From NCBI RefSeq assembly GCF_053078305.1, contig NZ_CP166879.1: a DNA stretch of 64,000 nt; one strand, 5' to 3'. Numbering within the stretch: position 1 is the stretch's first letter; every line of letters begins with the position of its first letter. Positions 30,001 to 36,000 of this stretch are shown piece after piece. A program made the position numbers.

Positions 30001-33000
30001 CATTGCCTTCTCAACCGCAGAAAAATACGTCATTTTTTCCCGTGACAGCTTCAGCCCGCTTTCAGGCACTCTGGCGCTGTATTTAGGATCCTGCCACCAT
30101 GCGTAAAAATGGAATTTATAATCCTGTGCCGTCAGCAATAAGCCTGATGCAGTGCTCTCCTGTGCACGGTTACTCATCTCGTAAAAATCACCACCCACGC
30201 CTTCAGCCGTGGATTCATCAAAAATAATGCATTCATCAGAGACGGCATTAAGCGTACCGGTTCGCAGCTCTTTCGCCTTAGCCGGATATTTCGCGCAAAT
30301 TTTGCCGTGCTCTGAGATATGCAGGCGCTGCACCGTACCTGAGCGAAATGAGGTTGCCACCTGAATACTCGAGCCGTGACCAAACAGGATATAGCCACCG
30401 CTGGCACCGCTACGACGTTCAACGATGGTGAATGAGGCTCTCAGCCAGTCAGGGAGATGATCAAACGGTACAGCAATTTTTGTGCGGAAAATTTCACTGG
30501 CAGCCTGTTTATCCTGAGCGACGATCCCGCATTTGAGATGCGGAATGAATAATGCCTGGTCGAGAAGATAAATATCAATGGCTGTGGAAAATCCCAGCTG
30601 GCGCGCTTTCAGGATAATGTTTTTATTATGCATGTTACGAAACAACTGACGTTGCGCCGGTCGCATTCTGAAGGTGACCAGTTCACCTTTTTCGTTCTGT
30701 ATTTTGTAGAGATGATTGAGGCGCCACCAGGGATTGCTCAGTTTTGTCATAATGAACAGACGTTGTTCGGTCTCAGTCATTTCTGCAGGTTCATCACATC
30801 GCGTTTTATTCTTCCGGAATGTCATCCAGTCTCCCCGAATTACTCATTTCATGCAGCGATGACACGATGTCACTGACTGGCGTAATAACACCCCGGCGCT
30901 GGCTGGTCAGAATATCGGTTTCCGCTCTGAGTTTATCTCTGGCGGCGTTGATTCTTTCCCGGTCAGCACGAAGTTTTGGTGCTGTCTCAGCCAGGACGTC
31001 CAGCGTCAGCAATGAGCGTTCAATTGACTCGATACGGGCAATATTCCGGTCAAGGGCCTGTTCAGCTTTGAGTATTTTGTCGTAAAGAGCAACGCGGGTT
31101 TCCACGTCAGTTGCCTCTTCCAGGTCGGCGAACATCCCTTTAAGTGCCTTAGTTACTGAAAGTGCGCGGGCCCGGGTGAACACCAGTTCATCGAACAGCA
31201 CCATGTCGGACGCATCATCCATGAGGTTATCTGCCTCAAGATACTTCGCATATCCACGGTGTCTTACGGCGTGGGTGTTTCGCTGAGAAAAAGCGTTTGA
31301 AGGAGGTAAAAGTCGGGAGCCACGAATCCGTTTCGTTTCTGCCGAATTTGCGCAGTTTTTTTCAGAGTTTTTTGCGCATTTTTCATCGTCGGAACACGCG
31401 TCATTGCTGGGTTCTTCATCTGAGATGTCATGATCGATTTCATGATCGGTTTTATGATCAATTTCATGATCGATTTTGCCCATTTTTATACGGGTTCTGG
31501 CGGTGTTGTAATTAATCTTTTTCTTCCGGCACCAGTCCAGTAATGTTATTCCCGTTTCGGCATGTTCGCGTCGGAATGCCTGCTCCAGCTTTTTCCAGTC
31601 CAGCTTTGCCATGTCACTTTCTGACGTCCTCTGTTAAAAACTGACGCATAATGACCGCTGTGATTTTTCAGAATTCACACAGCAGCGCCATACTTGATCG
31701 ATATTTGTACAATGAGGTTGTTTTATCCGGTTTCTTCCACCACCGCACCGGACAGGCGGCTTCGCGGGAAATCGCTCCCATCTCGTGAAAAATGAGAAAA
31801 CCCGGTGTGCATCGTTTTTGATTACCCCCGCACACTCACGCAGATAAGGTGGCTGCGGTCTCTGTTTATGCGGGAATACGGCGACGATACGGCGCATCAG
31901 CAAAACTTAGTTCAGCACTGAGTGCGGATATAGTCCTGTGCCCCTTCCAGCTGCTTCTGCATCAGCATCAACCGCTCTCTGAGAGTGAAATAATCCCGTT
32001 CAACTGTGTCTGCCAGTCGGGGGGCGGTTGCATTATCCACGCCGGAGGTGGTGGGGGCTTCACGCACGGTACCGGAGCAGGTGGCGTTGATCCGCAGGCG
32101 CTTACGACCAGCGGCAACATCAGCACGCAGAGTTTCATTTTCAGCTCTCGCATCGGCTAATTCCCTCGAGTATTTTGCATCGAGCGCAGCAACATCACGC
32201 TGGCGCACCTGCATGTCAGTAATGGTGGCATTCGCCTGTTCCAGCTCTCTGGCTTTTTTATCGCGCTGCGCTTTGTAGGTGATGGCGTTATCGCGGTAAT
32301 GATTCAGCCCCAGACTAAGCGCACCACAGACCACCAGCAGAATAACAGTAAACGCGGAAAGAATTCGGTTTATGCTCACCATGCCCCCTGTCAGAAATTG
32401 CAGATTATCAGCTCGCTGACACTGCTTGTCTTACCACGTGGTACAGTATAACGATGAGCAACATGATGAATATTCATCCCCTCAAACAATCGTCTCATTT
32501 CCTGCGTATCGTTCAGGGATATAATCATTTTGCCTTTTATTGTGCGGGCAAGTTCTGCCATGCGCTCATAATTGCAGAATGAAAAATCAATGCCGTAACC
32601 ACCATCCAACCAATACGGAGGATCGCAGTAAAACAGCGTTGTCGGGCGGTCATACCGTGCGATACAGACCTCCCAGTCAAGGTGTTCAATAGTTGCCCGC
32701 GCCAGCCGATCACGGGCTTCCTGCAATAACTGCTCTGTATTCCCGGGGATTATCTGCGGTCTGTGAGTTTTAACTCCAAATGCCCGACTGTATGCTCTTC
32801 CGCCATACGCGCACTTCTGGATAAAAAAGAAACGGACAGCCCGCTGGATATCCGTCATGTACTCCGTGTGCTGATTTATCACCTCATTCCACATCTCACG
32901 ACTGGCGAGCATCCACTGAAACTGGCGGGAAAATTCCTCCTGGTGGTACTTCACCACACGGTAGAGATTAACGATATCACTGTTTATATCGTTGATGATT

Positions 33001-36000
33001 TCAGCGCAGCTCGGTTTTTTCATAAAGAACAGTGCCGCACCGCCACAGAACGGTTCCACATACAGAGTGTGCTCAGGAAATAACGGCAGAATATGTTTTG
33101 CCAGACGACGCTTCCCTCCTAACCACGGGAGAAACGGTTTTGCAGAGTTATTATTCATTTCACCACCAGCGGATTTCCCGGATTAGAACCGCAATTGCCA
33201 CAATGCGAATGGCAAATGCCGTTGCCCGAATAAATTCAGTACTCATCTGTTTAAATAAATTGTCGTCATCAGTCACTGTCACCCCACCAGCCCTGCCGAA
33301 GTCAACGCCATCCAGGCTATGGAAAGAAAAAGAGCAACCATCATTAGCGAAAATGAAACGCCGACAATCACACAGATGGTCTTCGCCAGCGTTATGAGTT
33401 TGCCTGATATCATTAGACGCCACTCCATCAATCCGTCTTTGTGATTTTTCCTTTGCCTGTATCAGCCAGGACAAAACCAATCAGCAGATTCGCTTCGTTT
33501 ATCAACGTGCGAATTTTTGATACATGCGCGGCTTTAACCAGTTTCCATTCGTTTAACCCTGTACCAAACAGACTGGCAATGTTTTTATCCCGTTTCATGT
33601 CAGCGCATGCCTGGTTGAGTTCTTCCATCACGCTCATTTGACGAGGATTAACGACAAAACCCTTCGTCCAGTATTCATAGAGAACATCGTCGCACTCTTC
33701 CTGATACTGGATAACCTTGTCGCGGATTCCGGGTTTTACTTTGTTGGGATTGATGGTTTGTAACCAGCCTGCAAGTTTTCGAAGTGGCAGGGACACCATA
33801 TTGCGTCGTTTCCCGTCCTCAGCAACCATAACGATTTCCGTTATAGTTGACGCAAAACGCTGTCTTAACTTAGCCAACTGTGATTGCCAGGCCAGCCCCA
33901 TCCCCGCAACGACAGGTTTCATGGGAACGTATGGTTCGCCGTTATGGTTAACCACATAAAGAGAATCGCCGTGAAACGGCACGGTTATCATATTCATCGG
34001 TTATTTCCTTTTAGTGATGAACCCTGCGCACAGGAATAACCAGCCCAAAGAGGGTTAACCAGACCACTGCCGGTTATCCACCAGGGCTCATCCTGAAAGG
34101 TTCTTTGGTTTATTTACGCTTGTGCGAAGCGCAGAAATGCCAAAGGCACCATTACGGTGCCTCTGCGTGAAACAATGTTCCTGACTTTATTCACTTAGGT
34201 TTTGCCAGTTCGCAGGATTTCGTGTTATCCGTCCGCGTTGGCCAACGTCATTTTTCAGCAAAATATTCTGCTTATCTGTCGATTCCCCAGCACGCCAGCG
34301 CGCTCTCCTGGTCACGACGGGATACCTGACCATAACAGTTATTTGAGCGAATACGGCAGTCCTGACCACCGTCATATATCCAGCGACGAATTTCAGCACA
34401 TGCGCCTTTACGGTCTCCGGCGTTCAGTTTCCGGTAAAACGTTGAGCTGAAACACTTACCGGGGCCAATGTTGTAAGGACAGAATGACGCGATCCCCGCT
34501 TTCTGAGGTTCGGTCAGTGGCACTCTGATGTTTTTCGCCACCCATGCCAGCGCCTTATCACGTTCAATGGCGTTAACCTGGTCGCATTTTTCCTTCGACA
34601 ACTTCATGCCAGGGACGACAGGCTTACCATCCACCTGGGTGGCACCACGGCAGATGGTCCAGATACCCGCACCATCACGGTATGCCGTGGTGTGGTTACC
34701 TTCTTTTTCGTCAAGAAACTGGTCGAGGATTTCAGGCGCAGAAGCACCTGCAGCAATCAGCGCCAGAACGACCGCTGATAAACCATAGCGGAATTTCCTG
34801 CTCATCAGCTTACTCTCCCCGCGCCGCCTTACGCCGGTCTTCTTTAATCTTGAAATACAGGTTCGTCAGATATGTCAGCAGCCCAAACAGCAGACTCCCC
34901 AGCACGCCTATTGCCGCCCACTGAGACGGGGAAACCCTGTCCAGCAACTGCAGGAACCAGTAGCCCGTCCCCACCGCTGACGTGGTGTATGACACACCTG
35001 TTGTGATTTTTTCCATCTGGTACATACCCCGTCTCCCGCGCAACGGAAGCTCACAACAATAAAAAGACCACCAGTGGTTTACTGGCGGCCCTGACAGCCC
35101 GTTACAGCATCATGACCGTTTCAGGTTGCGGTTCAGTTGCATCGGCTACCGGTAATTCAGGCTGAGGTTTACCGTTCTCTGCGGTGGTATCTCCCGCTTC
35201 AGTCGGTGGCTCTGCCGGTACGCCGAGCAGCTCATCCAGAATGGCATCCACTTCAGCATCGAGGCGTTCCTCCAGATTCTGGCGAAGTTTCTGTTTCAGT
35301 GCGCTTCTGACTTCTTCAGAGCGAATGACGTCCTTCACTGCCTCTGCAGTGACCAGGGGTTTAATTTCTGACATAGGATTTTCTCGCTGAAAGGGGTTGT
35401 TAAGGAATGAGCGGCTCTTCGGGTTTAGTTCCGGCTGACTGACTGGCGCTGATTTTCTCAGCGGCCCTTTTATCAATCTGCCTGCGCCAGAAATCGCGCA
35501 CAGCCCTGTACCCACCCGAAAGAAGATACAGCACACAGACCGCCGTACAGAAGTACAGCATCACCTGATGAATAAATATCATAATTTCTTACCGTTATGG
35601 TTGACAATGAGAACTGTTTTCATTTAAAAAATAACCGATGTACGAAAGCATCTTTTCTTTACATTCTCCATTGGGATTACCTCCGCCAGCTTCCATTCCT
35701 GCCGCTGGCGGCTTTTTTTAGCAATTATGCGGCTGCTCCAGCTTTGTTTGCTTTAACTTCCACCGTATCAATAAGTACAGGGTAGGTTTCTGCACTACCT
35801 GTAATATCCGTAATGACAAACCTGTTGAGTCCATTAGCAGTATTGGCCCATTTCACCAGGTCAAACGCCTGTCCATCCACACCATCAAGCACCGGAGTAA
35901 CATTAATGCTGTTACTGCCCTTAAATTTAAATGCAAGCGTATGCCAGTCATGGTCGAATGCGCCAAACGTGCCAAGTTCTTTTTGTTGATTACCTGTATG

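Follow-up and report, generated by a model that had tools for sequence, protein, structure and literature searches.

A Dam-Family Methylase Gene Within the Split Lysis Cassette of a 933W-Type Shiga-Toxin Prophage

The window analyzed here, a 64,000-nucleotide stretch of contig NZ_CP166879.1 (NCBI RefSeq assembly GCF_053078305.1), contains a Shiga-toxin (Stx) prophage whose lysis cassette is split: an antirepressor-like gene (ant) and a gene for a Dam-family DNA methyltransferase (dam) separate the endolysin gene R from the spanin genes Rz/Rz1. The region is the late lysis module usual for 933W-type (Traversvirus-like) Shiga-toxin phages, and the prophage carries stx1. Interruption of the cassette by ant is the norm in this phage family and was annotated in 1999; the methylase alone is unusual. 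The interval between R and Rz is an accessory-gene slot that normally holds a leader, the Ant-like gene and a membrane open reading frame (ORF) of 49 or 50 amino acids, and in the window this slot has gained two further cassettes, namely a 28-amino acid ORF (o28) and a 255-amino acid methylase from a rare Escherichia coli prophage lineage. The arrangement as a whole is ordinary phage mosaicism.

Gene Content of the Interrupted Cassette

The first-pass annotation of the window had described a contiguous pinholin and signal-arrest-release (SAR) endolysin with Rz/Rz1 some 1.9 kb away; the gene observation was confirmed, and the interpretation placed on it is partly supported. The S21-type class II holin, or pinholin (71 amino acids; 34810–35025, minus strand; PF04971, 9.5e-33), has the dual start Met1/Met4 (MYQMEK), and RefSeq gives its homologues the name “class II holin family protein”. 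Only 4 nt separate it from the SAR endolysin gene R, which encodes a lysozyme (177 amino acids; 34272–34805, minus strand; PF00959, 1.6e-26) with a Gly/Ala-rich, SAR-like N-terminal segment and E-x8-D-x5-T triad spacing, and which is homologous to R of phage 933W. In sequence (MYQMEK, GLSAVVLALIAAGASA and EGNHTTAYRDGAGIWT) the pair is of the phage 21 type, and its membrane behavior is predicted to be likewise. As in S21/R21, a dual-start PF04971 holin accompanies a lysozyme that bears a SAR segment at its N-terminus and has the E-D-T triad; no functional difference is evident, and the window differs only in the separation of these genes from those of the spanins. Between the R stop codon and the start of Rz lie 1,889 nt. 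The i-spanin Rz (156 amino acids; 31912–32382, minus strand; PF03245, 2.9e-48) starts 8 nt past the methylase stop codon, with AGGGGG ahead of it, and the o-spanin lipoprotein Rz1 (61 amino acids; 31968–32153, minus strand; PF06085, 1.4e-20), which has the lipobox VSAC and a Pro-rich mature part, is encoded wholly within Rz in the +1 frame, as expected of a two-component embedded spanin.

An antirepressor-like gene and a Dam-like methylase gene had been placed between R and Rz, and both were recovered by profile searches (PF10547/PF10549 and PF02086, respectively). The hairpin and the gap of about 270 bp described after R are also present, the gap measuring 274 nt and containing AT-rich, GC-rich and long hairpins. 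Two small ORFs, o50 and o28, had been missed, and the interval is better described as four tightly packed genes after a 274-nt leader.

The Ant-like protein (189 amino acids; 33428–33997, minus strand) matches PF10547 (P22_AR_N) at 9e-45 and PF10549 (ORF11CD3) at 5e-7, and it aligns with phrog_524, “anti-repressor Ant”, at profile positions 7–209. It possesses the N-terminal P22_AR_N domain, homologous to that of P22 Ant, a protein of about 300 amino acids. The C-terminal third found in full-length Ant families is missing, the protein having 189 amino acids against a phrog_524 profile of 317 positions, and ORF11CD3 forms its C-terminal domain instead. Moreover, P22 ant lies in the immI region under sar/mnt/arc-type control, whereas the window gene lies in the late operon without such control. 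The ant genes of the window and of 933W are 92.8% identical in nucleotide sequence, with a ratio of nonsynonymous to synonymous substitution rates (dN/dS) of 0.14. In the literature searched, no experiment on repressor binding by the late Ant-like protein was found.

The ORF o50 (50 amino acids; 33279–33431, minus strand; phrog_4906, 5e-27) is hydrophobic, presumably a membrane protein, and overlaps the ant stop codon by 4 nt. Its equivalent, a 49-amino acid “hypothetical protein” beside ant in RefSeq homologues, is present in nearly all ant loci. Next to it, o28 is an intact hydrophobic ORF of 28 amino acids (MSTEFIRATAFAIRIVAIAVLIREIRWW; 33160–33246, minus strand) whose stop codon falls 1 nt before the methylase ATG. 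It is homologous to the 28-amino acid protein WP_032140280, encoded directly upstream of Rz in another lysis-cassette variant (strain E41-1), and sequence similar to a 127-nt query containing o28 occurs in approximately 1,200 E. coli genomes. The RefSeq call of the o28 homologue in CP046539 as an N-terminally truncated pseudogene fragment appears to be wrong. Likewise, the view that the 114-nt “spacer” upstream of dam is a remnant of the methylase's donor context was ruled out, as it holds an intact 28-amino acid gene that precedes Rz in a common variant. The linker CTGGTGG(G)GTGA ends both o50 (33279–33290) and o28 (33160–33171), doubling as a Shine-Dalgarno-like sequence for the next gene, and other cassette variants have it again at their o49/Rz and o28/Rz junctions. 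Such a linker may serve as microhomology for cassette exchange, or mark the joints at which recombination took place.

The Split Cassette in Related Phages

The layout was surveyed in 80 IMG/VR loci with the closest Ant proteins, 72 of which yielded both ant and Rz. The order Ant-o50-Rz without a methylase was found in 68 of the 72, with Rha or bor sometimes following Rz, and in loci where R was also on the contig the R-ant gap was 273–339 nt long, usually 274–278 nt. The 933W record itself (NC_000924) has the order S, R, a 271-nt gap, ant, Rz, Rz1 and bor, and it labels ant with “possible regulation of host cell lysis”. Parts of the region are matched in 4,636 of 5,426 complete RefSeq E. coli genomes, and typical annotated examples among them have the same order.

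The window conforms to the 933W type in its gene order, its orientation downstream of Q and stx, the R-ant gap of roughly 270 nt (271–274 nt in the two), the 189-amino acid ant product and the embedded Rz1, and the lysis region is about 92% identical to those of Stx2a-converting Traversvirus phages over 70% of its length. It differs from 933W in the addition of o28 and the Dam-family methylase upstream of Rz, in the allele of the ant leader, and in what follows Rz. In 933W this is bor, and in typical Stx2a phages it is a Rha gene of about 720 bp; the window has neither, and Rz adjoins the region upstream of a 268-amino acid ORF (31898–31911).

The interruption by ant had been presented as a peculiarity of this cassette, a view that does not survive the comparison, since it is the standard layout in 933W and in the IMG/VR loci. 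The first-pass annotation had itself proposed a comparison with related Stx phages and had named universal conservation of the arrangement as the outcome that would speak against it; this outcome largely applies to the ant part, while the methylase part is rare. An ant gene between R and Rz should not be flagged as anomalous in 933W-like phages, and the split in itself, an annotated Stx-phage feature for 25 years, matters little.

Identity and Specificity of the Methylase

The unusual gene of the interval, dam (32391–33158, minus strand), encodes a Dam-family (D12 class) N6-adenine DNA methyltransferase of 255 amino acids (PF02086, 4e-27; 95.9 bits against a cut-off of 22). It barely passes the Dam-subfamily model TIGR00571 (115.2 against 114.85) and, at 72 bits, falls far short of the 441 bits that the E. 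coli Dam equivalog model requires. Motif I (EPFCGGAA, residues 35–42) precedes motif IV (YCDPPYW, residues 177–183), which is the order of the alpha class, and D179-P-P-Y182 is invariant in an alignment with relatives. The protein also aligns end to end with DpnM (1e-17) and E. coli Dam (EcoDam; 3e-15) of the PDB at 26–27% identity. The enzyme is an orphan in that its neighbors are o28 and Rz, with no restriction gene adjacent. PADLOC returned generic methyltransferase models only, without a system partner, and membership of the methylase in a defense system was ruled out on that result. Among the early-region ORFs scanned, no further methylase or restriction-modification system was found.

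Phage-borne orphan methylases of the Dam family are commonplace. Those of VP882, phiHAP-1, phiE125 (gp27), B3 and Klebsiella phage KP12 resemble the window enzyme in their D12 fold, alpha order, DPPY motif and lack of a partner endonuclease, and at 50–58% identity they are its nearest phage proteins. The window enzyme differs in being encoded inside a lysis cassette and in belonging to an isolated E. coli lineage. On the target specificity of the phiE125 and VP882 enzymes, the literature searched held nothing usable, and related prophage D12 enzymes are without an assigned motif in a study of the ST131 methylome (PMC4659465).

The structure of EcoDam with DNA places base contacts at K9, N120, L122, R124, P134 and Y138, and these residues are not conserved as a set in the window enzyme, which has LPW in place of LKW (Lys9) and AYGGRAYSRAFGVKTHRP in place of GYNGLCRYNLRGEFNVPFGRY. 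In other words, the GATC-reading segment of EcoDam and DpnM, GYNGLCRYN..GEFNVPFGRYK, with its canonical N-G-L-x-R...F-N-V-P-F/Y-G-R-Y-K, is replaced, and the same recognition segment reads QAFGGKV...TFGTSTT..PRF in the relatives at 58% identity. Because several of the contact positions are not conserved, GATC specificity cannot be assumed, although the target may still be GATC. Should the specificity prove to be new, it would add one more motif to the methylomes of E. coli that make Shiga toxin (STEC) and could affect the host range of stx1 phages across restriction barriers.

Distribution and Evolution of the Methylase

Relative to typical Stx2a phages, the extra segment covers about 892 bp (32374–33265) and contains both o28 and the methylase gene. 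The methylase segment was found in 4 of the 5,426 complete E. coli genomes and in 4 of the 80 related IMG/VR viral contigs. It is 99.8–99.9% identical in FHI_NMBU_10 and IBS28, the methylase copy of IBS28 being frameshifted, and its methylase part is about 86% identical in JNEC-KY176 and 2013C-3033. In every case the gene lies between a small ORF and Rz, directly upstream of the latter, and since the prophages that carry it there have three different terminase types, the methylase moves as part of the lysis module. Ten contigs encoding an identical protein all show ant/o49 upstream and/or Rz/Rz1 downstream, as far as the contig reaches.

Among deposited phage genomes, no protein was more than 60% identical to the methylase over most of its length. 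The identical protein is present in NCBI, and in a set of 5.8 billion proteins it forms an E. coli cluster of 112 members, followed by a second cluster at 87% identity and by relatives at 61% or less. Neither the phage records nor the 5.8-billion-protein set revealed a donor.

Between the two methylase lineages dN/dS is 0.31, which shows that the gene is under purifying selection. Their divergence is concentrated in three blocks (amino acids 113–144, 177–192 and 225–255) with 63–77% nucleotide identity, as opposed to 92–96% elsewhere, and the putative target-recognition hairpin falls within one of these blocks. That the recognition loop might be under positive selection was considered and ruled out by the high dS of the loop block (1.69) and its dN/dS of 0.19. 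This pattern points to divergent blocks that are old alleles brought in by recombination and not fast-evolving sites.

The Leader of ant

The 274-nt leader between R and ant (33998–34271, minus strand) is itself a mosaic, with a breakpoint in the comparison such that recombination carries the first ~86 nt along with R and the last ~190 nt along with ant. It occurs as two alleles, a window type and a 933W type, with conservation of 87–100%, and the fold of the whole gap has a z-score of −3.8. Rfam searches of the window at gathering thresholds found no family in the gap, and searches of 31400–35800 at E ≤ 5 gave chance-level matches only. A known RNA was accordingly ruled out for this gap; AsxR and AgvB, for their part, sit 3′ of stx.

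Three hairpins can be distinguished in the leader, all on the minus strand. A small AT-rich one (34257–34272) abuts the R stop codon. The second (34144–34162) is the GC-rich hairpin GGCACC-GUAAU-GGUGCC, extendable to 10 bp and followed by UUUGGCAUUUCUG, which has a folding energy of −19.4 kcal/mol (z −2.8) in the window and of −7 kcal/mol (z −0.4) in the 933W allele. It fails a terminator scan and is a weak element resembling an intrinsic terminator, not a conserved terminator. The third is a long hairpin of approximately 94 nt (34007–34100; −43.1 kcal/mol, z −3.8), in whose outermost helix CCUUU (34096–34100) pairs with AAAGG (34007–34011), the Shine-Dalgarno sequence of ant. Its architecture is kept in the 933W allele (−32.5 kcal/mol, z −1.5), and three of its pairs show compensatory changes between the window and 933W alleles, although this comparison is of two haplotypes only. 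The pairing suggests that the long hairpin could hold down translation of ant, which is a lead and not proof. The pairing of a hairpin with the ant ribosome-binding site offers an inexpensive way into the function of late ant, a gene present in most Stx phages.

Probable Expression and Role of the Methylase

All genes checked in the stretch that starts at Q, passes through stx, S, R, ant, o50, o28, dam and Rz/Rz1 and reaches the terminase genes are co-oriented, and the junctions are tight, with spacers of 0–8 nt or overlaps and with Shine-Dalgarno-like linkers. No sigma-70 consensus site was found in the R-ant gap or upstream of ant or dam, and over the whole 4.4 kb there are two sigma-70-like sites against 4.3 expected. 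A consensus promoter proper to ant or dam was ruled out, as neither the gap nor the region upstream of dam has a consensus site. No convincing terminator was detected flanking the methylase gene. A published account of Stx phages places every late gene downstream of Q and in one shared orientation (PMC8136144), and the D12 prophage methylase of E. coli EC958 is transcriptionally silent in the lysogen (PMC4659465), which fits expression of such genes in the lytic phase.

These observations also bear on whether dam should be called a moron. Like the morons of lambdoid phages, a concept that stems from HK97 and HK022, it is extra DNA between conserved late genes and is variable among relatives. 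Classical morons, however, have a promoter and a terminator of their own, whereas the window methylase has neither in detectable form and is packed translationally into the operon by spacers of 1 nt and 8 nt. It is an operon-embedded late gene, not a classical moron.

The reading that we consider probable is that the cassette is a late lysis module with cargo in its slot, and that the Q-dependent, late-made methylase modifies progeny DNA to the protection of the phage. The whole R-Rz interval would be read within the Q-antiterminated late transcript from pR′. The split should be harmless to lysis because holin, endolysin and spanin proteins act in trans, and would thus need only to be co-expressed. 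The methylase would be made late in lytic growth, when replication of phage DNA may outpace the host Dam, and would N6-methylate adenines of progeny genomes before packaging, assuming that it is active and has a target there. Methylated progeny could then be protected from restriction or from other methylation-sensitive barriers in the next host.

Several observations weigh against this reading. There is a weak terminator-like hairpin after R and a terminator-like site inside dam, because of which read-through depends on antitermination by Q, which is assumed. Several of the EcoDam GATC-contact positions are not conserved, which makes the target, and with it the benefit, uncertain. The frameshifted copy in IBS28 indicates that the methylase is dispensable. 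At the 3′ end of dam, a promoter-like site matching 9 of 12 positions, a chance-level match, could possibly drive Rz. Finally, the reading accounts for no role of the Ant-like protein, o50 or o28.

A more ambitious view, which is tentative and on the whole unlikely, starts from the leader and holds that the R-Rz interval is a regulated slot, in which the terminator-like element and the long hairpin gate ant-o50(-o28-dam), and that the methylase writes a new, non-GATC N6-methyladenine mark late in infection. Gating would take place within the late transcript, for example, by RNase III processing or by ribosome-dependent unfolding. The methylase lineage, confined to the slot and with a target-recognition segment that is both non-canonical and mosaic, would place the mark on progeny DNA.

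It is also conceivable that the lysogen makes the methylase and that the enzyme acts there on the host, either in epigenetic regulation or in supplementing host Dam so as to stabilize lysogeny. Stable lysogeny of 933W reportedly needs host Dam, and expression of the small Dam of Phi24B was detected in cultures of lysogens (PMC3342100); a weak promoter-like site, moreover, is possible anywhere in 4 kb. We nevertheless hold this to be quite improbable. There is no sigma-70 consensus upstream of dam or ant, the spacers of 1–8 nt place the gene inside the late operon, and the comparable enzyme of EC958 is silent in the lysogen (PMC4659465). The dam gene of Phi24B, for its part, is a different gene of 175 amino acids at 17.5–18.1 kb, outside the lysis cassette (PMC3342100).

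An equally slim chance is given to the methylase being a functionless passenger, a recent mosaic insertion heading for decay that makes no contribution to fitness. Its rarity (4 of 5,426 genomes), the frameshift in IBS28 and the fact that phages without it are the successful majority would all be in keeping with this. Set against them are an intact ORF that is identical across the 112-member database cluster, a second lineage that at 87% identity keeps its full length and motifs, dN/dS values of 0.31 for the whole gene and 0.19 for the block that diverges most, and the occurrence of the gene with three packaging modules.

Slightly less credible still is the notion that ant, o50 and o28, possibly together with dam, regulate lysis by adjusting when it occurs or how complete it is. 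It can draw on the 933W record's remark on ant, on the small size and hydrophobicity of o50 and o28, which they share with many holin/antiholin modulators, on the strictly conserved position within the cassette and on the conserved hairpin in which the ant ribosome-binding site is paired, suggesting controlled expression. Nonetheless, no homology to known lysis regulators emerged from the profile, phrogs or PADLOC searches, the N-terminal domain of Ant is otherwise a feature of antirepressor-type proteins, it is not obvious what a DNA methyltransferase would do in disrupting the envelope, and position alone is weak evidence in mosaic phages. Lastly, that the late Ant-like protein is a true antirepressor acting on the repressors of co-resident lambdoid prophages after commitment to lysis, with the methylase as unrelated cargo, is very improbable: the P22_AR_N and phrog “anti-repressor Ant” matches favor it, as do the many lambdoid prophages of STEC genomes (up to 17 matching places per genome), but the protein is without the C-terminal third that full-length Ant families have, its gene is in the late operon and not in the immunity region, and the early regions of the window already hold an AntA gene (48886–49524) and an ORF6N gene (57963–58640) behind C4/isrK RNAs.

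The MT-A70 Methyltransferase Near int

The window had further been credited with two unrelated orphan adenine methylases. The two do belong to different Pfam families, D12 (PF02086) in the lysis cassette and MT-A70 (PF05063) near int, and both have a DPPY/DPPW-type motif. The MT-A70 gene is real (208 amino acids, with DPPW; 59123–59749, plus strand; PF05063, 6e-23); its status as a second orphan DNA methylase is doubtful, since it matches a published rRNA-methyltransferase locus. Together with its two upstream genes it corresponds to the gp5/gp6/gp7 locus of the Stx2a phage phiPA8, in which gp5 is M.EcoPA8orf6770P. The start of the MT-A70 gene is overlapped by a 143-amino acid ORF (58695–59126, plus strand; phrog_1680), the counterpart of PNB-2 (gp6), which is reported to be the partner subunit that targets RNA, and upstream of this lies the ORF6N-domain gene (57963–58640, plus strand) that is PNB-1/gp7 of the phiPA8 paper. 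The published gp7 forward primer matches 57960–57981 with one mismatch and the reverse primer matches 60334–60355 exactly; the published terminator between gp7 and gp6 is matched exactly at 58654–58684; and the window peptide around DPPW, TLIYADPPWTFRD, is the one encoded by that paper's mutagenesis primer. In sequence, then, the window has at 57963–59749 the same three-gene locus, with PNB-1 and its terminator, PNB-2 and the DPPW-bearing MT-A70 gene, and the comparison concerns this gene and not the methylase of the lysis cassette.

In a 1:1 complex with PNB-2, the phiPA8 gp5 enzyme was reported to methylate 16S rRNA and to have only weak activity on DNA, while its O104:H4 homologue, M.EcoGV, methylated GATC when over-produced alone (PMC10810198). 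By its likeness to these, the window MT-A70 product would be neither clearly an orphan nor clearly a DNA methylase, and any count of it as a second DNA Dam ought to cite the rRNA-methyltransferase work. In other Stx phages a different, small dam gene is found at another place, as at 17.5–18.1 kb in Phi24B (PMC3342100). Phage-borne methylases being common in the Stx phage group, the combination in the window is a mosaic assortment.

Directly upstream of the ORF6N gene, matches to the isrK and C4 antisense RNAs were found at 57728–57910 (plus strand). The layout resembles the c4-ant immunity module of P1/P7, and by analogy it suggests that PNB-1 could be an antirepressor. The AntA/AntB-domain gene at 48886–49524 (plus strand) is the third antirepressor-type gene of the window, and just upstream, at 48757–48845 (plus strand), is a match to the sRNA-Xcc1 family (65.9 bits). 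A HicB-family antitoxin gene is present near the immunity region at 46633–46977 (minus strand).

Other Features of the Window

An ORF and profile survey of the window places the late genes on the minus strand and the early region and int on the plus strand. The late region begins with Q (40682–40149, minus strand; PF06530) and the stx1-type A subunit gene (39652–38696, minus strand), with its RIP domain, and B subunit gene (38685–38416, minus strand). These are followed by a large, conserved ORF of 672 amino acids (37743–35725, minus strand), by DUF1378 and DUF826 genes and by the lysis genes. Beyond Rz, ORFs of 268 amino acids (31612–30806, minus strand) and 568 amino acids (30825–29119, minus strand) occupy the positions of the 933W terminase genes, the former that of the small terminase, and downstream of them come a 714-amino acid ORF, in the position of the portal gene, and then the structural genes. 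The int gene (61330–62664, plus strand) is adjoined by an FMN_red/flavodoxin-type ORF (62661–63239), which is taken to be wrbA and, with it, the site of integration. The early region is mosaic, parts of it matching phages of the Lyz12581Vzw, phi191 and P13771 types.

The toxin genes (38416–39652, minus strand) are an stx1 variant and not stx2, while the closest matches of the lysis region are Stx2a phages. The mature B subunit begins with APDCVTG, and the C-terminus of the A subunit presumably differs from that of Stx1a. Directly 3′ of stx1B are two tandem matches to the STnc100 small RNA (sRNA) family (199 and 139 bits; 37847–38060 and 38122–38333, minus strand); in other Stx phages, the convergent anti-sRNAs AsxR and AgvB have been described in this moron site, 3′ of stx (PMC4104026). 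The sequence GATC occurs 169 times over the whole window, where base composition predicts about 248. The far end of the late region holds an ORF of 2,808 amino acids (487–8913, minus strand), and Phi24B has a comparable ORF of about 8 kb.

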